From Candidatus Kerfeldbacteria bacterium (GTDB lineage Bacteria; Patescibacteriota; Patescibacteriia; SBBC01; CAIJZX01), in NCBI GenBank assembly GCA_016193315.1, contig JACPSJ010000001.1, positions 21,935-85,934 of the forward strand: DNA of 64,000 nt. The letters run 5' to 3'. The notes beneath the pieces were generated by a model. That model ran no database searches and had not been told where the DNA came from. It saw only the letters and a program-made list of their open reading frames with translations. Below are positions 7,080-62,325 of this stretch, piece after piece; position 1 is the first letter of the stretch; each line of letters starts with the position of its first letter. The position numbers and the translations under genes are program-made.

Positions 7080-7784
7080 TTATGAATTCCAACCTTTGGC
7101 CGCCAACCCGTTGAAGGCGGCCATCACCTGAGCTTCTTGTTTTGAGGCGCCCTCGCCCGCGGCGATTTGATCGTCATCAATGTACAGGCCGACCAAAAAA
7201 TGCTTGTCATGATCCGGCCCCCATTCTTTCAGCACTTTGTAGGACGGCGTGATGCCGAGAATAGCCTGGCTCATTTCCTGAAACTTGCTCTTGGGATCGA
7301 CGTAGAGCTGTTGTTGCAGGATATCCGGCAGCTTGCTTAAGATCCGGGCCATGATGAACGCCTCGGCCGGCGCCAAGCCGCCGTCGAGAAAGAGGGCACC
7401 AATAATGGCTTCGACCGCGTTGGCGTGAATGTTCTGACGGGCCTTGGAGTTTTTTTCTTTGGCTTCGCCGCGGCTCATCATCAGCCAGTGATCGAGATCG
7501 AGTTCGGCGGCCACCGTGGACAGCGACTTGGCGTTGACCAGACTGGCCCGCCAGTTTGTCAGATCGCCCTCCGGGTTGGGGTAGTGATGGAAGAGGTGCT
7601 GGCTGACGACCAGTTCCAAGACGGCGTCGCCGAGGAATTCCAGCCGCTCGTTGTGCCCGAGCGGAAAATCAGGGTGCTCGTTGAGGTAGGAGCGATGGAC
7701 CAGCGCTTGGCGTAGGAGATCGGGATGTAGAAATTGGTGCTTCAGGATAGTTTGGATTTCGTCGATGTCGGCCATAGCCGTCAT
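7080..7784 (-). CDS. rnc: ribonuclease III
   Basis: RNase III signature [15 protein letters not shown]; dsRBD at the C-terminus. Confidence 0.9.
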
Positions 7785-14214: not shown

Positions 14215-15075
14215 TTAGATCGGCAGCTCGTGGACCTGGCTTGAGTCAGGTGGTTCCACCGGCTGAGCGGACGGCGGTGTGGCTGGCGGGAGAGTTGAGG
14301 GTCGGGATTCGGCCGCCGGCAATGACGAAGTTGGCGGCCGTACAGTTTCCGTGCCCCGGTCGTCTTTCGTCGGCACCCGGCCAGTTTGAATCCCGCCCAT
14401 CAGCGGAGCGGCCACCGGGCGATGGGTAGACCCGACCGGTTGACCTTGACCGAGGCCCGCACCGGCCGGACCAGGGCGATTTGACCAACCGGTTGGCTGT
14501 CCGGGCAACGGCTCTGGTTCCAGAAACGCCGGCTGAACACCGCTCGTGGCAGCCATCCGGCCATGCTGAATGCCCAGCCGTTCACGGACCATGGCCATCG
14601 CCTGTTCGTGGCTCGGACGGGCCGGGGTAGTTTCGGTTGGCGGCGGAGCCGGAGCGGCCGCGGGTAGCGATTCTTTCAGCAGCCGTTTCGCCTGTTCGGT
14701 CTCATGCCCTGGCGGGTTGAGACCGGAACGCAACTTCGTTCCCTGTTCATGGGCCATCTTTAAAAAACCTCGGCTGTAGCGCCCGATTTCTTCCTTCGTC
14801 TTCAGGGTTCGCTCGTCCTTAAGCTGTCGGAGGAAGTAGGCTTGTTCTTTGTCCTCCACCCGGGCTGGTCGGGTCTGCCGGAGCTGTCGCTTAAACGATT
14901 CGGGAATGTATTTCTCAAACCCCCGCTTGATCAACTCCTGTTTGGCGGCCGGCGTCAACTGCTTCGGCCGATACGACGGTCGGAGCTGACGGGGCGGCTG
15001 CAGACGGCTGGGCACGTAACTTCGTCTCAGTGCCGGCCGACCAGAGAATCGAATGAATCGGTCGAGCATGGTCAA
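14215..15075 (-). CDS. hypothetical Pro/Ala-rich protein
   Basis: Long ORF with a basic structured N-terminal half and a low-complexity Pro-rich C-terminal half. Confidence 0.35.
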   Translation of the reverse strand: MTMLDRFIRFSGRPALRRSYVPSRLQPPRQLRPSYRPKQLTPAAKQELIKRGFEKYIPESFKRQLRQTRPARVEDKEQAYFLRQLKDERTLKTKEEIGRYSRGFLKMAHEQGTKLRSGLNPPGHETEQAKRLLKESLPAAAPAPPPTETTPARPSHEQAMAMVRERLGIQHGRMAATSGVQPAFLEPEPLPGQPTGWSNRPGPAGAGLGQGQPVGSTHRPVAAPLMGGIQTGRVPTKDDRGTETVRPPTSSLPAAESRPSTLPPATPPSAQPVEPPDSSQVHELPI

Positions 15076-16643: not shown

Positions 16644-17309
16644 ATGTCGTTAATTACGCTCAATCACATCACCAAGTCGTTCGCCGTCGGCGAAAGCCAA
16701 TTTCGAGCACTTGATAACGTTAGCTTGTCGGTTGAACCCGGAGAATTTGTGGCCATCATGGGCCCGTCCGGTTCGGGCAAGTCAACACTGATGAATATCA
16801 TCGGGCTGCTAGATCGCCCCAGCAGTGGCGAGTACCGACTTGACGGCCGGCCGGCGTCAACAACAATGTCTGATCGGCAGCAAGCCAGACTGCGGAGTGA
16901 GTTTATCGGTTTCATTTTTCAGAATTTCAATCTTCTGCCGAACGTCGACGTCCTGGCCAACGTCCTCCTGCCGGCGATGTACAGTCGTGACCAGCGCGAC
17001 AGTAAACAGCGGGCTGAGCGCCTGCTCCAAGAAGTTGGCCTCGGCCACCGACTGCGTTATCAACCGAACAAGTTGTCCGGCGGCGAGAAACAGCGTGTCG
17101 CCATCGCCCGGGCGTTGATGAATAACCCGAAGGTCATCTTGGCTGACGAGCCGACGGGCAACCTTGATTCAAAGTCTGGACAGGAGGTTATGAAACTGCT
17201 GACCGCGCAGCGTCATCGCGGTACGACGCTCCTGCTAGTAACGCACAACCACGATTTGGCTCGCCTGGCCGATCGGGTGATTCAGCTGATGGACGGTCGG
17301 ATTGTTTGA
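16644..17309 (+). CDS. ABC transporter ATP-binding protein (MacB/LolD/FtsE-like)
   Basis: Walker [10 protein letters not shown], signature [15 protein letters not shown], Walker [12 protein letters not shown]. Confidence 0.9.
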
Positions 17310-39332: not shown

Positions 39333-39510
39333 ACGCATCAAGAGAGGGTGATAGCGCACGCTCAACGTGCCGCGGGTGTACTGGACCCGCCAAGCGCCCC
39401 CACAACCTACCTCAAGCTTGTCGAGAGGCAAGGTGCGAACCCAGCCCTGTCCGGCGGAGGGACGTAGTACGTCCCGGAGCCGGATCCGGCTCGGCCGGAA
39501 AAGGGACAGA
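39333..39510 (+). promoter_or_regulatory. SAM-I (S-box) riboswitch-like element, variant with insertions (upstream copy)
   Basis: P1 acgcatc...gatgc; core ATCAAGAGAGGGTGA...ACTGGaCCCG...AACC...GGTGCGAAccCAGCC...GGACAGATG; resembles the RF00162 consensus. Confidence 0.4.
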
Positions 39511-43025: not shown

Positions 43026-43277
43026 GGTCTTTCTACTACATACTGTAGTACCTTGGGCCGAGTGTCAACCCCGCACCACTTTTTGGTATTCTCACGGCCG
43101 CGGATGCCGCCGACGTCGAAGCCGCCTCTCATTGTATACCAAGAGGCGAATCTGATTGGCGGAAAAGTGGTGCGGGGTGCCCGGCCCCCGGGGCCAGCGC
43201 TATGGCCGGACCGAAAAGCGCTTGTCAAATGGGGTAACCTTGGCTATACTTCGCCTGCTTCGTTTGGTCGACCAGCT

Positions 43278-46198: not shown

Positions 46199-46315
46199 CC
46201 AATCCTGATGCCCGTGCCCACCGCGCGCCGCTTGCCTGGTCGGTCCTTAGCTCCTCGTAAAGACCGGCGAAGCCGGTCCACGGGGCAGGCAATGTACGTA
46301 CGGTCCCGCCCCGGT

Positions 46316-46387
46316 TCGGTCCCTAGCTCAATGGTAGAGCACTCGTCTTATACACGAGCGGTTGCAGGTTCGAGTCCTGCGGGACCG
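46316..46387 (+). tRNA. tRNA with anticodon TAT (would read AUA; Ile-like), no encoded CCA
   Basis: Cloverleaf: acceptor CGGTCCC/GGGACCG, D-arm GCTC..GAGC, anticodon stem CTCGT/ACGAG, loop CTTATAC, T-arm GCAGG TTCGAGT CCTGC. Confidence 0.6.
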
Positions 46388-46548
46388 AGTTTGGGCGGGA
46401 CAGGTACACGAGCGGTCGCGGGACTGCCCCGAAAACGAGGAACTACGTGACAAGTTGTACGGGACTCGAATCCTGGCGGGCCGACCATGGAAAGGGTGTA
46501 TCGCCTCAGCGCTTAAGGCACCCGGTGTGAAAGATTCAACCGAAAACT

Positions 46549-48581: not shown

Positions 48582-48617
48582 AGAGCTTTTCTTACGCCGG
48601 CGAAGCGGGCCGGGGCG

Positions 48618-48665
48618 CTACGTTGACATCGTGAAGGCCAGAGGTTCAAATCCGGGCGTGGTACG
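48618..48665 (+). repeat. degenerate partial copy of the tRNA-Val anticodon/T-arm region
   Basis: cgttgacatcgtgaaggccagaggttcaaatcc versus tRNA cattgacattgtggaggtcagaggttcaaatcc; the T-stem is not complementary. Confidence 0.3.
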
Positions 48666-48690
48666 TAGAACGTGCCGCGCGGACCGGAGG

Positions 48691-53001: not shown

Positions 53002-53964
53002 GTGGTCTGGGTTCATGATATGCTGAGCAGTGCTATGAGCAACCAGTCGATTGTAGTCCCAGCCGGGACGCCGCCAGTCCGCCTCGATGTCTTTCTGACG
53101 CAACACACTGATCTATCCCGGTCGCAACTCCAAAAACACATCAAGTCTGGCGCCGTATTACTGAATGGCCGGGCCGTTTCCGCCCACCACCAGGTACATC
53201 CTGGCGATGCCGTCGTCCTGCAGGAAATCAGTGCCACCTACCACGAGCAGCCGATCACCGCTGATACCGCTGACCCAGTGGTGGTGTTTGAAGATGACAA
53301 TCTGCTGGTCATCAACAAGCCCAGCGGCCTGGTGGTTCATCCCGCACCCGGCATCCGTGAACGTACGGTTTACGACTGGGCCGTACAGCATGCTCCGGCC
53401 ATTGGCGGCATTGGCGATCAACCACAATTGCGGGGAGGTATTGTGCACCGTCTCGATCGCGATGTCTCCGGGCTGATGGTGATCGCCAAGTCACAACCAA
53501 TGTTCGATTTTCTGAAGTCTCGGTTTCAGGAGCACGCTGTGGAGAAGGAGTACCTAGCCCTTGTCCATGGCCGCTTGACTGACACCAGTGGCCGGATTGA
53601 CTTTGCCATCGCCCGTAAAGCCGATCATTCTGGGTTAATGGTGGCGCGACCGAAGTCACAGGAAGGGAAAGAGGCGGCGACACTGTTTACGGTCGAGCGC
53701 CACATCAAGAATCTCACGCTCGTTCGGGTCCGAACGTTGACTGGTCGCAGTCACCAAATCCGCGTTCACTTCAAGGCCATTGGTCATCCACTGGTTGGCG
53801 ACCCGCTGTATCGAATCCGGGGCCAAAAACGATTGCGGATCACTCCGCCCCGCCCGTTTCTCCATGCCACGGTGCTCGGCTTCACCGATCTTGCCGGGCA
53901 GCGCAGAAAATTCGAAGCGCCGTTGCCGAATGATTTGCAGCAGTACTTGGCTCGGGTTGGATAA
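53002..53964 (+). CDS. rluD: RluA-family 23S rRNA pseudouridine synthase (RluD-like)
   Basis: S4 domain at the N-terminus; catalytic HRLDRDVSGLMVIAKS. Confidence 0.85.
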   Translation: MVWVHDMLSSAMSNQSIVVPAGTPPVRLDVFLTQHTDLSRSQLQKHIKSGAVLLNGRAVSAHHQVHPGDAVVLQEISATYHEQPITADTADPVVVFEDDNLLVINKPSGLVVHPAPGIRERTVYDWAVQHAPAIGGIGDQPQLRGGIVHRLDRDVSGLMVIAKSQPMFDFLKSRFQEHAVEKEYLALVHGRLTDTSGRIDFAIARKADHSGLMVARPKSQEGKEAATLFTVERHIKNLTLVRVRTLTGRSHQIRVHFKAIGHPLVGDPLYRIRGQKRLRITPPRPFLHATVLGFTDLAGQRRKFEAPLPNDLQQYLARVG

Positions 53965-54054
53965 GGCCGCCGCTCCGGACCGTGACCACCCCGTCTCCGC
54001 CAAAGGCGGAGCCACCCCTCCTTATCAAGGAGGGGATGGGCCGGAGCGGCGGCC
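53965..54054 (+). promoter_or_regulatory. highly structured element between rluD and rplS (possible L19 leader or terminator)
   Basis: 14-bp outer stem ggccgccgctccgg/ccggagcggcggcc enclosing hairpins ccgtctccgccaaaggcggagcc and cccctccttatcaaggagggg. Confidence 0.4.
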
Positions 54055-54083
54055 TTGACCGCAATGGTCTACCGCGCTAGACT
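54055..54083 (+). promoter_or_regulatory. promoter candidate for rplS
   Basis: TTGACC, 17 nt, TAGACT. Confidence 0.35.
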
Positions 54084-54105
54084 GTCGTGGTCCTCAGTAA
54101 TTCTT

Positions 54106-54417
54106 ATGCCCCACGAACTCCCACGCACCGACATCAAGCCCGGCCAAACCGTTCGGGTCCACCAGAAAATCAAAGAAGGCGACAAAGAGCGTCTTCAGGT
54201 TTTTGAAGGTGTGGTTATCTCGCGACGGCACGGCACCGGACCGACCAGCACTTTCACGGTGCGTAAGGTCAGTGAGGGCGTGGCGGTGGAACGGATTTTC
54301 CCGCTCCACTCGCCGATCATCGCCAAGCTCGATCTGGTTCGGAGTGCCAAGATCCGACGAGCCAAACTGTATTATCTGCGCCACCCGGGCGCCAAGCCGC
54401 TGAAGGAAAAGAGGTAA
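54106..54417 (+). CDS. rplS: 50S ribosomal protein L19
   Basis: [62 protein letters not shown] matches L19. Confidence 0.85.
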
Positions 54418-54452
54418 AACGTTACACTGTCTGTCAGGCCGGAATCTTGATC

Positions 54453-54483
54453 CGGCCTGATTGTGGGTGAGTAAAAAAAGCGA
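54453..54483 (-). terminator. intrinsic terminator (minus strand)
   Basis: Reverse complement reads gcgacccctaggggtcgcttttttt. Confidence 0.5.
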
Positions 54484-54486
54484 CCC

Positions 54487-54744
54487 CTAGGGGTCGCTCA
54501 ACCACGGGCCGTCGTAGACGGTGGTGTACCCGCCGAATCGGCACGAGGCCTCTTTGTAGACCTCGCGGTTGGTGGTCGTCAGGCCGCAGCGGAGGCATTG
54601 GAATTCACGACCTTTGGCGGTCCGGAGGCGGACTGGAGTTTTTCCTACCAGCGTAGCCTCAGGATCCTGGTCAGTGACGGTGATGACAAAGTGTTCGCCG
54701 TCACGGGACGTCGCCGTCCCTCCATAGAAGGCGTGGACAGACAT
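54487..54744 (-). CDS. small Cys-containing protein, possibly the C-terminal part of a frameshifted secreted protein (with ORF 54645..55031)
   Basis: ORF 54645..55031 has a signal-peptide-like N-terminus and overlaps this ORF by ~100 nt in another frame. Confidence 0.3.
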   Translation of the reverse strand: MSVHAFYGGTATSRDGEHFVITVTDQDPEATLVGKTPVRLRTAKGREFQCLRCGLTTTNREVYKEASCRFGGYTTVYDGPWLSDP

Positions 54745-55677
54745 GGTTCACCTCTTTCAGTTCGCTTCACGCGAGTGAAGTCGTAGTGGAAAGTTGATTC
54801 GGCCAGGACATGGGCACCGCTCAAATAGCGACCGGCTCGACCATTTGCTGTGACCGGGCGGCAAGACATTATCGTGACACTGGTCCTGTCGCCAGGGTTT
54901 GAAGTCATCTGGTTAGTCAAGACGTGTCCGTTGACGAACAGTTCCGGGCCAGGTTCATGATCCGCCATCGGGCCTCCGGCAAAGATGGAAAGGGCGAAGA
55001 TAACGAAACAAGCTCCCGGTCGGGAGCTCATGTCTTGGCGTCGAGTAGTGGGTGGATTTATGGCGACAACACAGGAACTCCCGATCGGCTGGAGCCGGTC
55101 AGAATCAGACTAAGCGTGATGGTCAGAATCTGGGAGTAGACTGTGGTGTCCATACAAGAATAACCTAGCGCAAAACCGCCAAGGTGTCAATACCCCCCCT
55201 GGAACATTAGTCGTTCCCCCGCCTGCGCGTCTACCCAATTAGGCGCCCAGGTGGGGGAGCGGCCGCGTAGATGGCTTGCACCTTACGCGGCCGCCTCGTC
55301 TTGACCGCCATTCCGGTTTTCCGGAACGGCTTCCAAGGGTTTGGACTTGGCTGGCTCGCCGCGGTGGTTTTGGCGCCGGCCGGAATAGACCATCCCAGCC
55401 GCCAAAAGAATCGGGGTCGCGACCACCAGCGCGATCATCCACACCCAGGCAGGTACTGGCACTAGATTCACCTCCTTTGGTTTAGGTGCGGCTTTCCACG
55501 TGATCCGGACTGGCACGTATTACGTGGTGCTGCGGCCGGACTTACGTGGTCCCGGTCAGCTGCGGCGCAAAATGAGCGTTGGCCTAGGCATAGCACAAAG
55601 GCCTTCCGTTGTAAAGAGTGTGCTTGTCCGGACAATAGTTATGGCTAACGAGTGTGACAGTCAAGCTTGTAAGCAGC

Positions 55678-55765
55678 TGGTGCGGCCGAGAGGACTCGAA
55701 CCTCCAATCCCTTGCGGGAACTAGCACCTCAAGCTAGCGCGTATACCAAATTCCGCCACGGCCGC
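55678..55765 (-). tRNA. tRNA-Leu (GAG), class II, CCA encoded
   Basis: Reverse complement GCGGCCG...CTAGC TTGAGGT GCTAG, long variable arm, GGAGG TTCGAGT CCTCT CGGCCGCACCA. Confidence 0.8.
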
Positions 55766-55965
55766 ACCAGCTGCTGACAAAGTTTCAAGGTGCTGCGTCC
55801 CTCTTGGTAGGTTGAGATTGTGCCATAAAAATTTGTCCTCGGCAAGCGATCATTCCAACTTGCCCTTCCTTGCTTTTTCCGCTAGGGTAGTCGCGGCCGG
55901 TCGAGGAATCGGTTATATGAGAAGCTCTTTGACACATCGGCCAACAACCGAAAGGAGGTTTCGGC

Positions 55966-56847
55966 ATGCTCGACTGGATCCTGCGGCGCATTCCGCGCTG
56001 GCTGGTCTGGAAGATCGCCCAACGGTACATCGCCGGGACCTCGCTAGAGGGGGCGGTGGCTGTGGTACGACGAATGAATGATGAAGGTTTCGTCGTTGCC
56101 CTATCGTATCTCGGTGAACACTCGACTCGAGCCGAACAGTGTGACCAGGCGCTGACTCAGTACCTGGAAATTCTTGAGACCATCCATCGTCTCAAGCTCC
56201 GCGCCCAGTTGTCGGTCAAACCATCGCAGCTCGGCTTACCGCTCGACTTCGGCACCTTCCTCCAGCGAACCGTTGCCTTACTGACCCGCGCGTCGGCGCT
56301 CGGCATCTTCGTCCGCTTGGATATGGAGGATTCGAAGCATACGCAATCGACACTCTTAGCCTACCGTATTCTCCGCCGTCGCTTCCCGAACATTGGGACC
56401 GCCCTCCAGGCGACGCTCCATCGGAGCAAGACCGATGCTGCCAGCCTGCTTGACGGTGAGACGAATCTCCGTGTCTGCAAAGGGATTTATCCCGAACCAA
56501 GGTCCATCGCCTGGCAACGCCCGCCCGAAATCTGGCGCCACTATCTGCAAATCGTTTTACTCCTGATGCGCCGCCGCGCGTTCGTGGCCTTGGCCACGCA
56601 CAACGAGCGGATGCTGCGCCGGTTGGAAAAGCTGGTGGCCCAAGTCGGGCTTCCGCCAGAGCGGTACATTTTTGAGATGCTGCTGGGCGTCCGATTCACC
56701 CGCGCCCGCCAACTACTGGCCGCCGGGCATCCGGTTCTTCTCTACGTGGGGTTCGGGGCTGAGTGGTATGAATTCGCCCTGCGGCGGATGCACGAAAGCC
56801 CGCAACTCATCTGGTTAGGTATTCGTGGTCTGTTCTCCCGCACCTGA
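55966..56847 (+). CDS. proline dehydrogenase family protein
   Basis: Pro_dh-like: ...ALSYLGEHS...LSVKPSQLGL...LRVCKGIY. Confidence 0.75.
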   Translation: MLDWILRRIPRWLVWKIAQRYIAGTSLEGAVAVVRRMNDEGFVVALSYLGEHSTRAEQCDQALTQYLEILETIHRLKLRAQLSVKPSQLGLPLDFGTFLQRTVALLTRASALGIFVRLDMEDSKHTQSTLLAYRILRRRFPNIGTALQATLHRSKTDAASLLDGETNLRVCKGIYPEPRSIAWQRPPEIWRHYLQIVLLLMRRRAFVALATHNERMLRRLEKLVAQVGLPPERYIFEMLLGVRFTRARQLLAAGHPVLLYVGFGAEWYEFALRRMHESPQLIWLGIRGLFSRT

Positions 56848-56911
56848 AGTATCCGGTCCCGGCATGCAAGATGTGCTGAACCGGATTTTTTATAAGTCGA
56901 ATTGGCCTTGA

Positions 56912-56951
56912 CCCAGCACCACTTTTGTATGGAAACAAAAGTGGTGCTGGG
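56912..56951. promoter_or_regulatory. 16-bp perfect inverted repeat (operator or bidirectional hairpin)
   Basis: cccagcaccacttttg-(tatggaaa)-caaaagtggtgctggg, flanked on both sides by TTGAC. Confidence 0.4.
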
Positions 56952-57083
56952 TTGACAAATCCATCGGCCAGGAGAATGGTAAAGACAGTAGTCGTCCTTT
57001 CCCAATCATGGCCGATATCCATAGCCTGGAGATTTACTACCCAAAACCATGGAGCACATGACCGGGAAGAAAGTGAGGTTGTC

Positions 57084-57797
57084 ATGTCTCCCGTTGTCCT
57101 GTCGGTCGGCCCCGGGATGCCATACGGAGCTCCGGAGCTGAAGGCCGTGCGACGCAAGTACATGGCCCGGGCCACCGTGTTCGCTTCCGGGCTGTGGTCG
57201 GGGGTGTATTTGTTGGGGCTAGCCTTGGGCGTTTTGGTGATTGCCCGATTGCCGGCGACGAGAATCATCACCCTGCCGTATCAGCTCTTACCAACGCCGC
57301 CGCCGCTGACCCAGCAAATCCCGCCGCCGGCCATCGCCATTGCCAAGCCGGCCGTGGCCACAGCCGGCGTGGCCGTGCCAGTGCCGGATGCCAAAGCCGA
57401 GCCAGAACGGACGATCGCCACCCAGCAGGAGATGTCGATTCAGGGTCCCACCCCTGGAGCTTTGGGCGACAGCCTCGTGGTCGCACCACCAGCTGAGGGA
57501 GATCTGCCCAAGCTCGACGATTACGTGTATCGCGAAGAAGAACCAGCCTTGATTACTGACGCCGCACCGGTTTACCCAGACATCGCCCGCGAGGCGCAGG
57601 TCGAAGGCACGGTCCTGTTGCGGGTATTGGTCGGCAAGAACGGACGTGTCATCGAGGTCCACATCGATCATTCCATCCCGATGCTGGACCAGGCCGCTGT
57701 CGAAGCCGCTCGGAAATGGGTGTTCAAGCCGGCCCTCAACAACAACCGGCCGGTACCGGTGTGGGTGGCTCGACAAGTTCGGTTTTCGCTCCACTAG
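57084..57797 (+). CDS. TonB C-terminal domain protein with TM anchor and Pro-rich linker
   Basis: TM helix, PPPLTQQIPPPAIAIAKPAV linker, C-terminal PVYPDIAREAQVEGTVLLRVLVGKNGRV...AAVEAARKWVFKP (TonB_C). Confidence 0.7.
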   Translation: MSPVVLSVGPGMPYGAPELKAVRRKYMARATVFASGLWSGVYLLGLALGVLVIARLPATRIITLPYQLLPTPPPLTQQIPPPAIAIAKPAVATAGVAVPVPDAKAEPERTIATQQEMSIQGPTPGALGDSLVVAPPAEGDLPKLDDYVYREEEPALITDAAPVYPDIAREAQVEGTVLLRVLVGKNGRVIEVHIDHSIPMLDQAAVEAARKWVFKPALNNNRPVPVWVARQVRFSLH

Positions 57798-58116
57798 CGT
57801 TCAGCCGCAGGCCCGCGGCACCACGTTAGCCTCGATTATGTCGGGGCTTTTTTCAAAGTCTTGGACGAAGAGTGGGCTGACCGGCCGGGCCCAAGTGCCT
57901 TGAAATGGACGGCCGATTCTGGTAAAGTAGCGCTGCTCCTGAAGCGCACGGCGGTCACTTGTCCGAGATGCACTGCGTCCCCGCCGTGGCCGATGACGAT
58001 TAGCTCCGCGTAAAGCCCGAAACAAATTCGGGCCACGCGCCGCCGCAGCTAGTCAGAGCGCTCCGCTTATCCCGTACCACTTGTCGCTGCGTTCCTTGGA
58101 TGCGGGGCAGGCATCG

Positions 58117-58191
58117 AGGACGGTTAGCTCAGCGGGAGAGCACTCGGCTTACATCCGAGGGGTCGCAGGTTCGATCCCTGCACCGTCCACC
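58117..58191 (+). tRNA. tRNA-Val (TAC), CCA encoded
   Basis: GGACGGT..anticodon loop CTTACAT..TTCGATC..ACCGTCCACCA. Confidence 0.85.
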
Positions 58192-58306
58192 AAGAAGTCT
58201 GACGGGGTACGCCGAGGAAGTCGCCCCGCCAAAAGGCGGGGCATCGTCCACGGCTTCGGCCGGCGGGTCCGAAAGGCCGTCCCGCCGAATGGCGGGACAC
58301 CGTCCA
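58180..58306 (+). repeat. 10-nt direct repeat (caccgtccac) of the tRNA-Val 3' end, flanking a 107-nt segment made of two GC hairpins
   Basis: caccgtccac at 58180..58189 and 58297..58306; between them cgccccgccaaaaggcggggc and gtcccgccgaatggcgggac. Confidence 0.45.
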
Positions 58307-58318
58307 CTAAAGCAAACC

Positions 58319-58576
58319 ATGACATTCTTCATCATTCTCGGAGTCATCGGCCTGGGCGCGTTGCTGGTCATCAAGACCCAGTGGTTCTACAACTTCACCG
58401 GCCCGATCGACTGGGCCGAACAGCATCTCGGCACGGAAGGCGGCACCCGGCTGTTCATCAAACTGATTGGCATCGCCATCATTCTTGGCGCCTTCCTGTG
58501 GGTGACCGGCGGGTTGCAGGCCATCCTGAACGGGATTTTCAAGCCTTTTGCGCAGACGTTGAATCCGGGGAAGTAA
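58319..58576 (+). CDS. small membrane protein (85 aa, 2 TM)
   Basis: ATG at 58319 after the repeat; hydrophobic. Confidence 0.4.
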   Translation: MTFFIILGVIGLGALLVIKTQWFYNFTGPIDWAEQHLGTEGGTRLFIKLIGIAIILGAFLWVTGGLQAILNGIFKPFAQTLNPGK

Positions 58577-58598
58577 TTCTCCGCCTCGCACCACGGTA

Positions 58599-58635
58599 GG
58601 GGTGTAGCTCAGCGGCAGAGTCCCGCTCCATATAT
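58599..58635 (+). repeat. tRNA 5'-half-like fragment (acceptor plus D-arm) followed by the palindrome ccatatatgg
   Basis: ggggtgtagctcagcggcagag resembles a tRNA acceptor and D-arm, abutting tRNA-Ala. Confidence 0.3.
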
Positions 58636-58708
58636 GGGCTGTTAGCTCAATTGGTAGAGCACCTCATTTGCAATGAGGAGGTCACCGGTTCGAGTCCGGT
58701 ACAGTCCA
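58636..58708 (+). tRNA. tRNA-Ala (TGC), no encoded CCA
   Basis: GGGCTGT (G3:U70)...anticodon loop TTTGCAA...TTCGAGT...ACAGTCCA. Confidence 0.8.
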
Positions 58709-58847
58709 TATCTAGTGCGGGACGAGGGTCAAGGGGCGAGCGAGGCGAGCGGGCAGCCGGTGGCTGCCCCGGGCGCGAAGCGTGACTCCCTTCATCTCCA
58801 TTTTGGTGCGGGACGACCCTCCTCAGGTCTAGAGTCCTCGAAAATGC

Positions 58848-59159
58848 ATGAAAAGACTATACATCATCAACATCAAAAGAGTGTACGCAAAGCCGCAAAA
58901 GAATGACGGATTTAGGATACTTGTTAACTGCCTCTGGCCAAGAGGTGTATCTAAGGAGAATACAAAAGTCGATCTTTCGCTCAAAGACATCGCCCCAAGT
59001 AACAAACTGAGGAAGTGGTTTAGGCATGATCCGAAAAAATGGATAAGGTTCCAAAGCAAATACAGGAAGGAGCTCGCCAAGAATAAGAAAGCCGTCACGC
59101 TTCTGAAAGATATTATCAAAAAAAAAGAGGGACGCGGCCTTGCTTTATTCGGCTTCTGA
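58848..59159 (+). CDS. DUF488 (YeaO-like) family protein in an AT-rich islet
   Basis: KRVYAKPQKNDGFRILVNCLWPRGVSKE...LSLKDIAPSNKLRKWF matches the E. coli YeaO pattern (RVYDP...DGYRVLVDRLWPRG); local GC much lower than the surroundings. Confidence 0.7.
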   Translation: MKRLYIINIKRVYAKPQKNDGFRILVNCLWPRGVSKENTKVDLSLKDIAPSNKLRKWFRHDPKKWIRFQSKYRKELAKNKKAVTLLKDIIKKKEGRGLALFGF

Positions 59160-59227
59160 CGAGTAACATAACCATGCTGTCGTGCTTAAGAAGTTCTTGA
59201 AATCATGAGCCCGCACTTTCCCATGCA

Positions 59228-59590
59228 ATGAAAGCTGAAATCGATCACCTCCAGAAGATCTTAACCGCCGGCGTTGTCATCGCCATCGGCTTGATCGTCC
59301 TAAAATACATCCCCATGGCCATCTGGGGGCCGAGTATTCTATTCGATGCCTCTGGGCACTTGTCCGGTGCGATCTTTGTGCTTTACGTGCTGTGGTTCTT
59401 CGTCGATCAGAACAAGCGATGGCGGTTGCCGTTCATCATCTTTGCCGCTTTTGTGCTGGTGGTAATTTCGCTGCAGCGGATCGTGGCCAATGCGCACAAT
59501 GATGTTGGTTTGTTGCTTGGCTTACTGGTCGGGCTGTCAGCGATCGGCGTGGCCGAATGGAAAACCATTAGGAAGCGGCTGGATTTCTAA
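59228..59590 (+). CDS. small PAP2-like membrane protein
   Basis: 4 TM helices; DASGH and R-x5-H-x2-D (QRIVANAHND), reminiscent of PAP2 motifs 2 and 3. Confidence 0.45.
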   Translation: MKAEIDHLQKILTAGVVIAIGLIVLKYIPMAIWGPSILFDASGHLSGAIFVLYVLWFFVDQNKRWRLPFIIFAAFVLVVISLQRIVANAHNDVGLLLGLLVGLSAIGVAEWKTIRKRLDF

Positions 59591-59604
59591 AATAAAGAAA
59601 AACT

Positions 59605-59632
59605 CCACGGACCGTAGCCCGTGGAGCCTCGA
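59605..59632 (+). terminator. hairpin terminator candidate
   Basis: aaaaactccacggaccgtagcccgtggag. Confidence 0.4.
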
Positions 59633-60123
59633 CTCTCTTGCCGCTCACGCCGCGACTGGTTCCAGCACTCGGCTGGGTTGCGATACCGGCACGGTGTCGG
59701 TGCGGCATTCCCGCAGCTGGGCCGGGACAGCGAGCTTGCCGTCCGGTCGGACCAACCGCTGCCGCAAGAAGCTGAGCAGGCCGCGGGGCAGAGGAGCGTC
59801 GTGGGGCCGATGGCCGCGCAAATGGGCGGCTTCGGCCGCGTTCAGTGAGCCGAGTAAGTGATCGGAGAGCATTGGGGGACCTCCGAGGAGAAGAAAAGGG
59901 GGGACTCGAAATACCTGGCTTTATGTGCAGCACACGGCGCGGCCGGCCGCGAGGGAGAGGGGGAAAGTACGACTTTTATTATTCTAGCTAACCCTCCGAT
60001 CTGGTGCAAGAAACCAACCATCGGCATCTTGGTTGAGATTCCGTTGCCGGCCGATCATCTTGACTCACCGCTAACGGCATGTTACATTCGGCCTGATTTG
60101 GCGTTTCGAAAGGAGGGCAGCGC

Positions 60124-60349
60124 CGTGACTGAACGTTACCAGGGGTTACTGGCCGAGATTCAAGCCGAGCTGGAACGGCGCCGGGCGATCCACCATCCAA
60201 CGAGAATCACCAGCGTCGAGCTCGTGGGTCAGCAGTTCGTTTTCACCATCACCGAAGACAGTAATCGGCGTCAGATCTCTGTTGACTTTGACCAGGCGCA
60301 ACTCGTGTTGGTCGGGATGAAGTCGTCTGGCCCACCCAAGCCGCCCTAG
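60124..60349 (+). CDS. hypothetical small protein (GTG start)
   Basis: AAGGAGGG 8 nt before the GTG. Confidence 0.3.
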
Positions 60350-60462
60350 TATCCTAGATCCCAGGCCGGCTTTTCTTTCACCAACGGGAATCTTGAACGA
60401 TTCTATGATATACGCTATTCTATCGAAGCATTTTTCTATTTCCTGATTGCTTGACATCGATC

Positions 60463-60548
60463 GATCGCACAGTGCCGCGGTAGCTCAGTGGTAGAGCGCA
60501 GGCCTGCCCGGCGGAGCCGGGTCCGGCTCTGCCGGAAAGAACCTGGCC
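60463..60548 (+). other. tRNA-Phe-like 5' half (acceptor, D-arm, 5' anticodon stem) followed by a ~42-nt GC-rich insert. Its first 18 nt form the outer inverted repeat
   Basis: GCCGCGGTAGCTCAGTGGTAGAGCGCAGGCCTG then cccggcggagccgggtccggctctgccggaaagaacctggcc; compare intact tRNA-Phe GCCTGGGTAGCTCAGTGGTAGAGCGCAGCCCTG. Confidence 0.45.
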
Positions 60549-60631
60549 CTTCGCTGCGGCTCAGGGTAAACTCTATCAGTTCGACTTGCCCCGCACCTCA
60601 CAAACAGTAGTTTTTTTCTCGCCTGGTGCCT

Positions 60632-60706
60632 GCCTGGGTAGCTCAGTGGTAGAGCGCAGCCCTGAAGAGGTTGGCGTCATCAGTTCGATTCTGATCCCAG
60701 GCACCA
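60632..60706 (+). tRNA. tRNA-Phe (GAA), CCA encoded
   Basis: GCCTGGG..anticodon stem CAGCC/GGTTG loop CTGAAGA..ATCAG TTCGATT CTGAT CCCAGGCACCA. Confidence 0.85.
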
Positions 60707-60916
60707 GGCGAGAACGGAATGAATGAGGTGCGGGGTTCTGACCCGCGGCACTGTGCGATCTTGGTAGCGAAGTGGGTCGAGCCGGTCTCGCGAAGCGAGA
60801 GCGACAGAACTGCTTCTGTCGCGGCCGGCGAGACGGGCAATCCCATGTTCCGAAGGAACGGGATTGCCCCGGAAGAGCGCCGGGCACGTAAAGGCACGCT
60901 TCGCGTCTCCACGTGC

Positions 60917-61027
60917 CAGGCCTGCCCGGCGAAGCCGGGTCCGGCTCCGGAACGTATAACGTTCCTCCGCCGGAAAGAGCCTGGCGTCGTCAGTTCTGCC
61001 GGACTCCGATCGGGGCTGATCCCAGAT
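60917..61027 (+). other. tRNA-Phe-like 3' half (anticodon arm onward) carrying two inserts
   Basis: CAGGC CTG [49-nt insert homologous to 60507..60548] AAAGA GCCTG GCGTC GTCAG TTC [20-nt insert] TGAT CCCAG; compare tRNA-Phe ...CTGAAGAGGTTGGCGTCATCAGTTCGATTCTGATCCCAGGCACCA. Confidence 0.45.
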
Positions 61028-61179
61028 ACTGAGCAGGGTAATGCGGCGAGGAGCGGGGCCCTGTCTCCCGGCGCCAGAAACCGGTGCCAAATAATTTTTG
61101 AGCAGCGCACCCATTGACCGGCGCCGAGTGTGTGATACCGTGTCTGAAGACAACATGGTGGCTTTCGACAGGAGACACC

Positions 61180-61485
61180 ATGTCCAACATATTAACCATG
61201 AGAGAGCTCAAAGCATCTATCGAAGAGGTAAAAGGCCAGATTCGAGGGCTTGATCTTCGTGTGCAAGGAGTTGAGTTAGAGGTCAAAGACCTGCGGCAGG
61301 AAATGCGTCATGGCTTTCATGATGTTGACCAGAAATTTTCAAGTCTTCAGTCTTCTGTCGACCGGTATTTTAGGAAAACCGAGAGTTGGCACGACGAACA
61401 GGTGATACTGAAAGCCCGGCATGATCGGCTCAGCACCCCCCTGATCGATAGGGGAATTTTGACTAAAGAAGAAACGCTGTTGTAA
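61180..61485 (+). CDS. small coiled-coil protein in an AT-rich islet
   Basis: AGGAGA RBS; heptad-like LKASIEEVKGQIRGLDLRVQGVELEVKDLRQEM; local GC ~45%. Confidence 0.45.
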   Translation: MSNILTMRELKASIEEVKGQIRGLDLRVQGVELEVKDLRQEMRHGFHDVDQKFSSLQSSVDRYFRKTESWHDEQVILKARHDRLSTPLIDRGILTKEETLL

Positions 61486-61653
61486 GGTGATTCCCTAATT
61501 CCTCCCAAGCGATGGAACCTAGAGAGGCTCTTGCTTTTTATTACGTTTTACGATAATTTATTGATCTGTTACGGCCCGCTCCCCCGCACCGCTTTCTTCT
61601 CGCTCGTTCGGGTGCCGGGCGAGACTCAATACACATACATCCGCGGCCCACGT

Positions 61654-61729
61654 GGGCCGTTAGCTCAGCTGGTAGAGCAGCTGCCTCTTAAGCAGCGGGT
61701 CGCAGGTTCGAATCCTGCACGGCTCACCA
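61654..61729 (+). tRNA. tRNA-Lys (CTT), CCA encoded
   Basis: GGGCCGT..anticodon loop CTCTTAA..TTCGAAT..ACGGCTCACCA. Confidence 0.85.
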
Positions 61730-61861
61730 CGCGAGCCGCGGAATGGTAATCGCTAGCTCAATTGGGTCCGGCGAAGGGACGTATTACGTCCCGAAGCCGG
61801 ACGGGCAGAAGCGATCCCGCCGTACGGCGGGAGAGCGATCGGCGAGTTGCCAGTGGCAAGT

Positions 61862-61932
61862 CGCCGCTGCCCAGGAAGAGCAATTGCCTCTTAAGCAATG
61901 GGTTGGAGGTTCGAATCCTAGGCTGGTCACCA
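61862..61932 (+). repeat. degenerate tRNA-Lys(CTT)-like sequence (pseudo-tRNA)
   Basis: ...GCAATTGCCTCTTAAGCAATGGGTTGGAGGTTCGAATCCTAGGCTGGTCACCA has the anticodon and T-loop, but the D-arm/acceptor and T-stem are disrupted. Confidence 0.3.
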
Positions 61933-62325
61933 GCATTTTCACACGCAAGAAGCGCTCGTAGAAAAACTCATCATGGCAGAGCCAGATCCGGCGCCGCCGG
62001 AAAATTGACAACGATCGCGGCGGAACCGCCGGCGGATTTCTAAGGAGCGGCCTGCCCTGAGCCTGCCGAATGGGTCGAACCCTTTTCAAAATAGTTCACC
62101 AGCGGTGGCGCTTGAGGTTAACTCAATCGGGCCCGCGCCCGGCGGATCCGTATGTAACGCGGGGGCATTCTGCCAGACTTGACGTTTTTCCGGGATGATG
62201 TAGTATTGGGCGCGGGTATTCGTTTATTAGACAGATGAACAAGCTGGAGGGAGCTGCCACCAGGGTTGTTGATGTTAGGTTCCACGCCCGGTCAGGCGGT
62301 GTTGTTCTCGTGAACCGGACGTTCT

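Follow-up and report, generated by a model that had tools for sequence, protein, structure and literature searches.

An intact tRNA-Phe gene nested in the T-loop of an interrupted tRNA-Phe gene in a Kerfeldbacteria genome

We analyzed 64,000 nucleotides of contig JACPSJ010000001.1 from a Candidatus Kerfeldbacteria bacterium (the window), in which an intact gene for tRNA-Phe(GAA) lies among nested inverted repeats and further tRNA-Phe-like sequences. ARAGORN, which called seven tRNAs in the window, placed this gene at 60632-60706, and the Rfam tRNA model scored it at 63.5 bits. A repeat search of 60300-61200 found three perfect inverted repeats, all nested around it: 60463-60480 with 60743-60760 (18/18), 60589-60600 with 60724-60735 (12/12), and 60616-60632 with 60698-60714 (17/17). 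These results bore out an earlier description made from the letters of the DNA (the sequence-only reading) with respect to the intact tRNA in its nest of repeats and to the perfect 18-bp outer pair; the middle pair, given there as 13 bp, proved to consist of 12 perfect pairs and a G.T wobble (G60588-T60736). The search also found four direct repeats: 60473-60506 with 60631-60664 (34 nt, 91%), 60499-60529 with 60917-60947 (31 nt, 97%), 60527-60547 with 60965-60985 (21 nt, 90%), and 60665-60686 with 60975-60996 (22 nt, 86%). Folding of 60455-60770, a check that had been proposed along with the original description, revealed a strongly structured RNA with a predicted energy of -171.4 kcal/mol (z = -8.46); none of 100 dinucleotide shuffles reached that stability. 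Inverted repeats of at least 14 nt with arms at most 400 nt apart occur 21 times in the window, two of them at this locus. Thus, by the score of the fold and the rarity of such repeats, those at the locus are beyond chance.

The locus resolves into three full-length paralogous tRNA-Phe units, A, B, and C, and probably only B works, a view that we hold with moderate confidence as part of the explanation developed below. The features are as follows, where R1 denotes a covariance model of the double hairpin built from five copies.

60463..60473 (+), 5' arm of the A stalk, GATCGCACAGT; pairs with 60750-60760 as part of the 18/18 repeat
60474..60506 (+), 5' part of A: acceptor GCCGCGG, D-arm, anticodon-stem CAGGC, C32 U33 G34; 91% identical to the intact tRNA over 34 nt
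60507..60536 (+), double-hairpin insert after G34 of A: first hairpin CCCGGC-GGA-GCCGGG, second hairpin TCCGGC-TCT-GCCGGA; R1, 54.5 bits
60537..60574 (+), middle of A: AAGA and anticodon-stem 3' strand ACCTG, variable-region hairpin GCCCT...AGGGT (60546-60567), AAACT; read from the sequence
60575..60584 (+), T-stem 5' strand ATCAG of A, then T-loop bases 1-5 (TTCGA); all 10 nt match the intact tRNA
60585..60735 (+), segment in the T-loop of A, between A58 and U59; 152 bp, bounded by inverted repeats
60616..60714 (+), B with its own stalk: leader TTCTCGCCTGGTGCC, tRNA, trailer GGCACCAGGCGAGAA; 17/17 inverted repeat
60632..60706 (+), unit B, intact tRNA-Phe(GAA) with encoded CCA, the sole unit able to decode; ARAGORN and Rfam
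60736..60750 (+), 3' part of A: T-loop UU, T-stem CTGAC, acceptor CCGCGGC, A73, no encoded CCA; equal to the tRNA-Phe 3' end of the relative L024
60750..60760 (+), 3' arm of the A stalk, ACTGTGCGATC; part of the 18/18 repeat
60758..61028 (+), unit C, the third of the tRNA-Phe-like units; acceptor ATCTTGG/CCCAGAT, four inserts; block alignment to the tRNA
60776-60872 (+), D-loop module M1 of C, 97 nt; homologous to a module of the outer tRNA-Val-like gene of the relative L033
60880-60916 (+), hairpin at position 26 of C, 37 nt; block alignment
60925-60974 (+), long double hairpin after G34 of C, 50 nt; R1, 49.9 bits
60997-61015 (+), T-loop insert of C, 19 nt; block alignment
61070..61098 (+), terminator-like hairpin with a T run, 3' of C; consensus scan only

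Unit A (60474-60750) is a complete tRNA-Phe gene with three interruptions, located in the anticodon loop, the variable region, and the T-loop. Its 5' portion reads GCCGCGG UA GCUC AGUGGUA GAGC G CAGGC CUG and runs into the 30-nt double hairpin; the middle, AAGA ACCUG G(hairpin GCCCU..AGGGU)AAACUCU AUCAG UUCGA, runs into the 152-nt segment, after which the gene ends with UU CUGAC CCGCGGC A. We found that A retains 19 of its 21 stem pairs, with 7/7 in the acceptor stem and 4/5 in the T-stem, where ATCAG faces CTGAC at 60738-60742. Its leader and trailer form a helix of 11 bp. When the pieces were joined in silico using genomic bases only, ARAGORN called the 75-nt product tRNA-Phe(GAA). Direct reading of A against B showed two-sided changes at pairs 4:69, 5:68, and 30:40, and the acceptor GCCGCGG/CCGCGGC of A and the string TTCTGACCCGCGGCA match the sole tRNA-Phe of L024. 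As found in the genome, A gave a weak Rfam tRNA match (60474-60561, 24.2 bits, below the threshold of 29), and ARAGORN called neither A nor C, with or without an intron mode that allowed introns of up to 300 nt. Because their anticodon loops are interrupted, A and C would be unable to decode. The sequence-only reading was right to see here a tRNA-Phe gene disrupted by a segment that bears an intact one, with the right outer repeat as the 3' acceptor strand of the disrupted gene. Its proposal of two halves of one split gene did not hold, as A has its own 3' remainder (60537-60584 and 60736-60750).

The segment in the T-loop of A starts with CTTG, followed by a boundary repeat, CCCCGCACCTCA (60589-60600), a spacer, B with its stalk, another spacer, and the second boundary repeat, TGAGGTGCGGGG (60724-60735). 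In RNA form, the boundary repeats read CCCCGCACCUCA after CUUG and UGAGGUGCGGGG at the 3' end. Among the nested inverted repeats, the innermost is the stalk of B, the middle one forms the boundary of the segment, and the outermost comprises the acceptor stem and the stalk of A. The stalk duplex of B has a predicted energy of -26.7 kcal/mol (z = -4.1), and within it the leader TGGT pairs with ACCA. The B leader repeats GCCTGG, so that two mutually exclusive folds are predicted (window 60616-60714; L028 19333-19436). One is a cloverleaf with a 4-nt bulge and a 12-bp stalk, and the other is a continuous 16-17-bp helix that frees the 5' acceptor strand; both are kept in the relative L028.

What had been taken for a matching 3' half downstream is part of C, a separate full copy whose own acceptor stem forms 6/7 pairs. 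Its anticodon-loop insert is homologous to that of A and sits at the same position after G34, as originally described. When C was spliced in silico, it was called tRNA-Phe only once four filler bases had been added in the T-loop. Open reading frames (ORFs) overlapping the locus showed no Pfam match and no coding signal. One of them, a 158-amino acid minus-strand ORF over C (60680-61156), is annotated as a gene in Logan; it has no Pfam match and is probably spurious.

The window sequence recurs in Logan contigs of other runs, with 100% identity over 53360-60660 and 99.9% over 60649-61695. These contigs end in a 23-nt stretch common to A and B, which accounts for the breaking of assemblies at this locus. 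Because the leader on one contig pairs with the trailer on the other, the join is sound. Together with an orthologous nested locus in the groundwater assembly L037, these contigs rule out an assembly artifact.

The proteins encoded in the window are identical to those of a metagenome-assembled genome labelled Candidatus Kerfeldbacteria (857-kb contig), which puts the organism in the Patescibacteria. The loci of relatives were reached via two conserved neighbors, a DUF7847 protein and an 85-amino acid membrane protein, which gave five further genomes (L024, L028/29, L033/34, L035/L030, and L037/38); L021, L026, and L031 cover the cluster only partly. Homologues of ProDH (nearest relative 48% identical) were of no use for comparing the locus, and a metagenome-contig search with the neighboring PIG-L protein returned only relatives of at most 58% identity, without synteny or tRNAs. 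The tRNA set common to the relatives consists of Ile(tat), Val(gac), Leu(gag), Val(tac), Ala(tgc), Phe(gaa), and Lys(ctt). The orientation of these genes varies: the minus strand carries Ile and Val(gac) in L028, Ala-Lys-Phe in L033, and Lys and Phe in L037; from sequence comparison, this suggests frequent inversions around stalk-flanked tRNAs.

We found the same nested layout in L037, whose assembly is unrelated to that of the window. Its outer gene bears a homologous double hairpin, likewise placed after G34 and showing a C-G to U-A change, and the same variable-region hairpin followed by GGGGTAAACT. The T-loop junctions read TTCGA/CTTGCCCCG...GGTGCGGGG/TTCTGAC, and the order is TTCGA/CTTGCCCCGTACCAGCCG, inner tRNA, CGGCTGGTGCGGGG/TTCTGAC, acceptor 3' strand, and ACCA, with the boundary repeats CCCCGTACCAGCCG / CGGCTGGTGCGGGG at the same place as in the window. 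The outer stalk of L037, GTTCCCTGGT / ACCAGGGAAT, is unrelated to that of the window and still pairs, while the outer T-stem is degenerate. Mean column identity between the two loci is 82%; the outer helices carry seven two-sided changes and the inner tRNA none, a single base of the inner tRNA being different. Thus, the nested state is inherited and is no private accident of the window genome. The L037 segment also contains a sigma-70-like promoter, TTGAGA-18-TACAAT, 27 nt upstream of the inner tRNA. This supports B as a self-contained unit, which probably has its own promoter.

The remaining relatives differ in what they keep. L028 has only a B-type gene, with the same leader, CTGGTGCCT, and the same acceptor as B, and a relic of the middle part of A upstream. 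Both L037 and L028 keep the variable-region hairpin of A and the GGGTAAACT box, a U-A to C-G change notwithstanding. In L024 there is just an A-type gene, which has the acceptor GCCGCGG/CCGCGGC and no stalk, and L033 and L035 have simple tRNA-Phe genes; the Phe stalk of L033, AATTCCCTGGT/ACCAGGGAATT, is that of the outer gene of L037. As far as these comparisons indicate, the outer Phe gene is at differing stages of decay across lineages.

Nested and expanded tRNA-like copies recur at the Ile, Val, Lys, Leu, and Ala loci across the lineage. At 46240-46490 of the window, a tRNA-Ile(TAT) without encoded CCA (46316-46389) is nested in an outer Ile-like gene, the pieces of which are CGGTCCTTAGCTC at 46243-55 on the 5' side and 46405-22 and 46465-87, ending with GGGCCGACCA, on the 3' side; the nested inverted repeats around it are GTCCCGCCC/GGGCGGGAC and GGGGCAG/CTGCCCC. 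Directly 3' of the real tRNA-Lys, a tRNA-Lys(CTT)-like copy (61745-61932) has a degenerate acceptor and a 110-nt D-loop module (GUCC..GGAC, then GGGCAG...GCCAGUGGC...GCGCUGCCC), and a partial tRNA-Val(GAC) copy at 48615-48685 lies 34 nt past the real gene (87% over 39 nt). The latter overlaps the predicted start of a PP2C-like ORF at 48631. The outer Val-like genes of L024 and L033 each contain tRNA-Val(tac), borne on a stalk of 17-20 bp, in a D-loop insert; the order in L024 is outer fragment 1-19, modules and the full tRNA, and outer fragment 22-77. The anticodon loop of an outer Val-like gene houses tRNA-Val(tac) in L028 and tRNA-Val(gac) in L026. In every nested case the outer fragments are exactly complementary, as are 1-19 and 22-77 in L024, which disfavors independent truncation of tandem copies. 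Tandem arrangements were also seen: the Lys-like repeats of L024 are tandem copies, and in L037 (4879-5270) three tandem copies of the 3' two-thirds of tRNA-Leu(GAG) follow the real gene, each with an insert of ~35-50 nt after G34.

Leader-trailer duplexes were significant (z < -2) at 24 of the 47 tRNAs of the lineage. Stalk sequences are particular to each tRNA and show compensatory change between genomes. In structure, the Phe stalk matches a processing stalk, with a 17-bp enclosing helix kept through three two-sided changes between the window and L028. Stalks are nearly all Watson-Crick, with G.U pairs on the sense and antisense strands numbering 42 vs 49; in whole-region folds the corresponding counts were 119 vs 93, with no clear strand asymmetry, folding energy included. 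Because the strand tests are symmetric, selection on RNA helices and maintenance of inverted repeats at the DNA level are inseparable.

The inserts at the locus (30, 22, 152, 97, 37, 50, and 19 nt), like those at the other loci, are all located in loops, none in stems. With R1, we found the double-hairpin family at ~10 loci in 205 kb, in Phe-like anticodon loops and Ala-like T-loops. Copies outside recognizable tRNAs lie in the window at 39447-39502 (-) and at 61968-62004, downstream of the Lys-like copy, and in L033 and L035 just upstream of the hup ribosome-binding site. The boundary-repeat family, with the core CCNGCACC...GGTGCNGG and the consensus CC(C/A)GCACC...GGTGC(G/T)GG, has 11 pairs in 205 kb compared with 1.0 in shuffles. 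It encloses Phe in the window and in L037 and Val in L026, and a related repeat with the core CAGCACC, read by eye, encloses Ala in L033. Other members are "empty" (43070-43176, 56913-56950, and 61583-61618 in the window; 4265-4366, 7215-7244, and 8147-8167 in L037) and sit upstream of ftsH, a tonB-like gene, tRNA-Lys, and rplS. TTGAC flanks two of these (window 56913-56950 and L037 4265-4366) and not the Phe locus. Both families are dispersed palindromic elements, with several copies at unrelated intergenic sites that have sequence and hairpin structure in common. Scans of viral contigs with three module patterns gave nothing, or chance matches in coding DNA, and the sole match of the hairpin pattern CCGGRACGTANNACGTYCCTCCGCC in a genome-contig scan, within a coding region of a Rokubacteria metagenome-assembled genome, is a chance one. 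Hairpin loops at the locus and in relatives are very often C-GAA-G (GCGAAGC, CGCGAAGCG). Such loops form exceptionally stable mini-hairpins, in DNA and RNA alike.

Starting from the observed anatomy, homology to relatives, and preservation of helices, we consider it moderately likely that B, carried on a repeat-bounded segment, interrupts the older gene A, that B alone decodes, and that A and C are paralogues that do not decode. A would be an older tRNA-Phe gene inactivated by the 152-bp segment with B, and the nesting would have arisen by insertion between A58 and U59, an origin to which the exact 58/59 junction and the boundary-repeat family point. B would supply tRNA-Phe, with its stalk holding leader and trailer together in the precursor, presumably in a form suited to cutting by RNase P and a duplex-specific nuclease. 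RNase III is encoded in the window (7080-7784, Pfam), so that a duplex-cutting enzyme is available. A and C may be mainly relics, and their conserved parts could persist by overlap with the expression signals of B or as self-maintaining hairpin elements.

Several points weigh against this explanation. No direct repeats or target-site duplication are visible around the segment. A sigma-70 promoter scan of the segment in the window gave no strong match, and the boxes TGGCCC-17-TAAACT and TTGCCC-16-TAGTTT, read by eye, are weak. As the stalks lack an excess of G.U pairs on the sense strand, selection on them at the RNA level is unproven. The idea of a single transposon-type terminal repeat was dropped, because the nested Val(tac) stalks of L024 and L033 are unrelated in sequence. 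We also know of no enzyme or mechanism for inserting a tRNA-bearing segment into the loop of its cognate tRNA gene. The chief tension lies in the tRNA-like conservation of M1, of M2 (the module of the Lys-like copies), and of parts of A: M1 and M2 are conserved like tRNAs, with conserved loops, between genomes with ~55-70% protein identity. This conservation, together with nine and seven compensatory pairs, makes it unlikely that these two are pure relics and argues that at least modules of the M1/M2 type are selected or selfishly maintained.

The strongest alternative, to which we give a definite but minor share of belief, is that A, with B inside it, and C form one precursor in which A and C are selected, non-decoding structured RNAs and the loop modules or the stalked tRNA are cargo. 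The tRNA body would provide folding, stability, and processing by RNase P and 3' nucleases. The engineered "tRNA scaffold" for expression of recombinant RNA is a man-made analogue. The confinement of inserts to loops fits this scheme, as does M1, found in the Phe-like unit C as well as in the Val-like gene of L033, with two-sided changes at 9 of the 38 predicted pairs and conserved loops. M2, kept in L024 and L033, shows two-sided changes at 7 of 30 pairs among four copies, including one in a Val-like host. In M1 and M2 together, sense-strand G.U pairs outnumber A.C mismatches by 7 to 1. A covariance model for M1 (R2) found only its two training sequences, and blastn-short with the modules was too insensitive, missing even the L033 homologue of M1. 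The preservation of outer helices between the window and L037, the presence of only one terminator-like site, located after C, and the lack of an overlapping coding signal are also in its favor. However, A is mostly lost in L028, and the Phe nesting is absent from L024, L033, and L035. Acceptor or T-stems are degenerate in several copies (the outer T-stem of L037, the acceptor of the Lys-like copy in the window), and the promoter-like site in the L037 segment would exclude the 5' part of A from the tRNA transcript. Folding energies and G.U counts show no clear overall strand bias, and template-switch correction of quasi-palindromes can also yield compensatory changes, free of selection. Seen more broadly, stalk-borne tRNA genes may enter the loops of cognate tRNAs, with the shells, M1, M2, and the double hairpin being either selected scaffolds or a new loop-targeting mobile element; we regard this as possible but doubtful. 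If true, stalk-borne tRNAs that enter loops would be a category of disrupted tRNA gene, or of tRNA-scaffold RNA, undescribed in Bacteria.

An origin by tandem duplication and decay, in which three truncated copies were filled by palindrome-generating mutation and the nesting is merely apparent, strikes us as improbable. Full or partial tandem copies are common in the lineage, as in the Lys-like repeats of L024 and the Leu array of L037, and helices that are nearly all perfect Watson-Crick without strand bias are as expected for maintenance of inverted repeats at the DNA level. In contrast, the parts of A meet exactly at 58/59 and rebuild a cloverleaf with a 7/7 acceptor and an 11-bp stalk, four further nested loci have fragments that complement each other just as exactly, and the layout is common to L037. 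The sequence-only reading had named, as the observation that would overturn it, relatives with a simple intact tRNA-Phe from which the arrangement derives by degenerate tandem duplication. Simple intact genes are indeed present in L024, L033, and L035; the derivation did not hold, since the layout is nested rather than plainly tandem and decayed, and is common to L037.

The view raised from the outset, that the locus is the remnant of an integrative element, is decidedly unlikely; here a phage or island would have used tRNA-Phe as its target and supplied a replacement copy. Consistent with it are a 10-nt copy of the tRNA 3' end, GATCCCAGGC, at 60357-60366, a low-GC stretch upstream (58.8-59.6 kb), and the position of the segment in a tRNA loop, such loops being reportedly described by Williams in 2002 as classic integrase crossover sites. 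Yet the 10-nt direct repeat is at chance level, the segment measures just 152 bp and is flanked by inverted instead of direct repeats, and nested, full-length copies are present instead of 3' fragments. None of the scanned proteins matched an integrase, transposase, reverse transcriptase, homing endonuclease, or phage protein in Pfam; the scan covered all but seven of the window ORFs of at least 180 amino acids, and a set of flanking small ORFs.

Least probable of all, and very unlikely, is an intron-containing or split tRNA-Phe that is spliced or trans-assembled into a second functional tRNA-Phe: in silico removal of the inserts restores a canonical tRNA-Phe for A and the 18-bp helix would hold its parts together after excision of B, but there is no group I or ribozyme match, the intron mode of ARAGORN finds nothing, the insert junctions lack a bulge-helix-bulge, an intact gene lies within the locus, the T-stem of L037 is degenerate, A is lost in L028, and we know of no bacterial enzyme that excises three different hairpin inserts. 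The earlier suggestion that the inserts are introns is unsupported for any known kind of intron, and the insert of A turned out to be a copy of the dispersed double-hairpin family.

We consider the locus a variant of the theme of disrupted or duplicated tRNA genes, with a real chance that it marks something new. To our knowledge, disrupted tRNA genes (split, permuted, or multi-intron) are held to be an archaeal speciality, and group I introns are regarded as the only interruptions of bacterial tRNAs. In the archaea Nanoarchaeum equitans, Caldivirga maquilingensis, and the Thermoproteales, tRNA genes with multiple introns are described, as are split, tri-split, and permuted ones (PMC4033280, PMC4090602, PMC3978253). 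Like these, the Phe locus has loop interruptions, including non-canonical D- and T-loop sites, and long complementary flanks that join the pieces. Unlike these, it is bacterial, the sequence interrupting A is a complete gene for a tRNA of the same isotype and is the functional one, and there is no sign that the outer gene A is reassembled; the disrupted gene is not the sole source of tRNA-Phe, as an intact one lies within it. We also found no bulge-helix-bulge, defined as two 3-nt bulges on opposite strands with a 4-bp helix between them, at the junctions: the insert after G34 folds on itself into one or more hairpins, with the flanks CTG(C) and AAAGA directly opposite as an internal loop, and the D-loop and T-loop inserts are independent hairpins. 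Neither the splicing endonuclease EndA nor the ligase RtcB was among the Pfam-scanned proteins of the 64-kb window.

Group I introns occur in anticodon loops of bacterial tRNAs, including the 35/36 introns of Patescibacteria (PMC13011429), and the Phe locus shares with them the phylum and insertion into the anticodon loop. In contrast, its inserts are double hairpins of 30-50 nt or the 152-bp tRNA-bearing segment, without a ribozyme core, and the position is 34/35. A group I intron was taken to have an Rfam-detectable catalytic core and a length of roughly 200 nt or more. Rfam detected no non-tRNA family at the gathering threshold and no intron or ribozyme even at E-values of up to 10, a limit at which a search of 1.6 kb gave nothing but sub-threshold noise. 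The B stalk in turn resembles rRNA processing stems, in which a leader-trailer helix is cut by RNase III (PMC10250234), and rRNA intervening sequences are a further known case. As in rRNA stems, a long leader-trailer helix encloses the mature RNA and is conserved through compensatory changes, and RNase III is encoded; unlike there, the helix encloses one tRNA, it is present at roughly half of the tRNAs of the lineage, and cleavage is predicted only.

REP, BIME, and REPIN palindromes and MITEs are families of short, GC-rich, dispersed palindromic intergenic sequences. The double hairpin and the CCNGCACC...GGTGCNGG repeats are likewise short, GC-rich, dispersed, and palindromic, and are sometimes nested in each other. 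They differ in their low copy number in the sampled DNA and in that several copies lie in tRNA-like loops or enclose a tRNA; no RAYT or transposase gene was seen among the scanned window proteins. tRNA-like non-coding RNAs include bacterial Y RNAs such as YrlA (PMC4201824), and tRNA pseudogenes and island footprints are found at tRNA genes (PMC3399842). As with Y RNAs, A and C are tRNA-derived, non-decoding, and placed beside true tRNA genes, and combine a tRNA-like module with extra helices. Unlike Y RNAs or pseudogenes, they are full length and nested, and their loop modules are conserved across isotypes and genomes. The Rfam YrlA and Y RNA models scored only 17.9 and 22.3 bits, below their gathering scores of 69 and 80. 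In the literature searched, neither nested tRNA genes nor D-loop modules are described for bacteria, Patescibacteria included.

These results describe a bacterial lineage that repeatedly carries a working tRNA gene inside the loop of a tRNA-like gene of the same isotype, together with tRNA-like copies whose loops contain structured modules that are conserved from one genome and isotype to another. Functional shells would be tRNA scaffolds of a natural kind and, in reduced genomes, a new class of non-coding RNA; shells that are selfish or mutational products would instead point to unusual generation and retention of palindromes in Patescibacteria. Either way, tRNA finders give spurious or truncated calls at some such loci (for example, L024 18422-18495 and L033 5914-5985), gene callers put ORFs over them, and assemblies break there.

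Some further observations concern other tRNAs of the lineage. In the window (58590-59600), a tRNA-Ala(TGC) at 58635-58709 lacks CCA, has 52% GC, and is preceded by a 5' tRNA fragment, GGGGTGTAGCTCAGCGGCAGAG, with CCATAT on both sides. The lower-GC stretch 3' of it encodes DUF488 and PAP2 proteins, and the region may be a small foreign insertion. In L024, a small GIY-YIG ORF (16939-17237) is followed by a tRNA-Leu 3' fragment that starts in the T-loop. Another GIY-YIG ORF (L029 13375-13650, equivalent to L028 about 14611-14886) lies within an Ala-like shell, enclosed by its acceptor arms GGGCTGT/ACAGCCC, directly upstream of the real tRNA-Ala. Last, a GC-rich stretch of ~0.9 kb without a called gene lies between tRNA-Leu and the nested tRNA-Val in L033 (4560-5450) and may represent a large structured RNA or an intron remnant.

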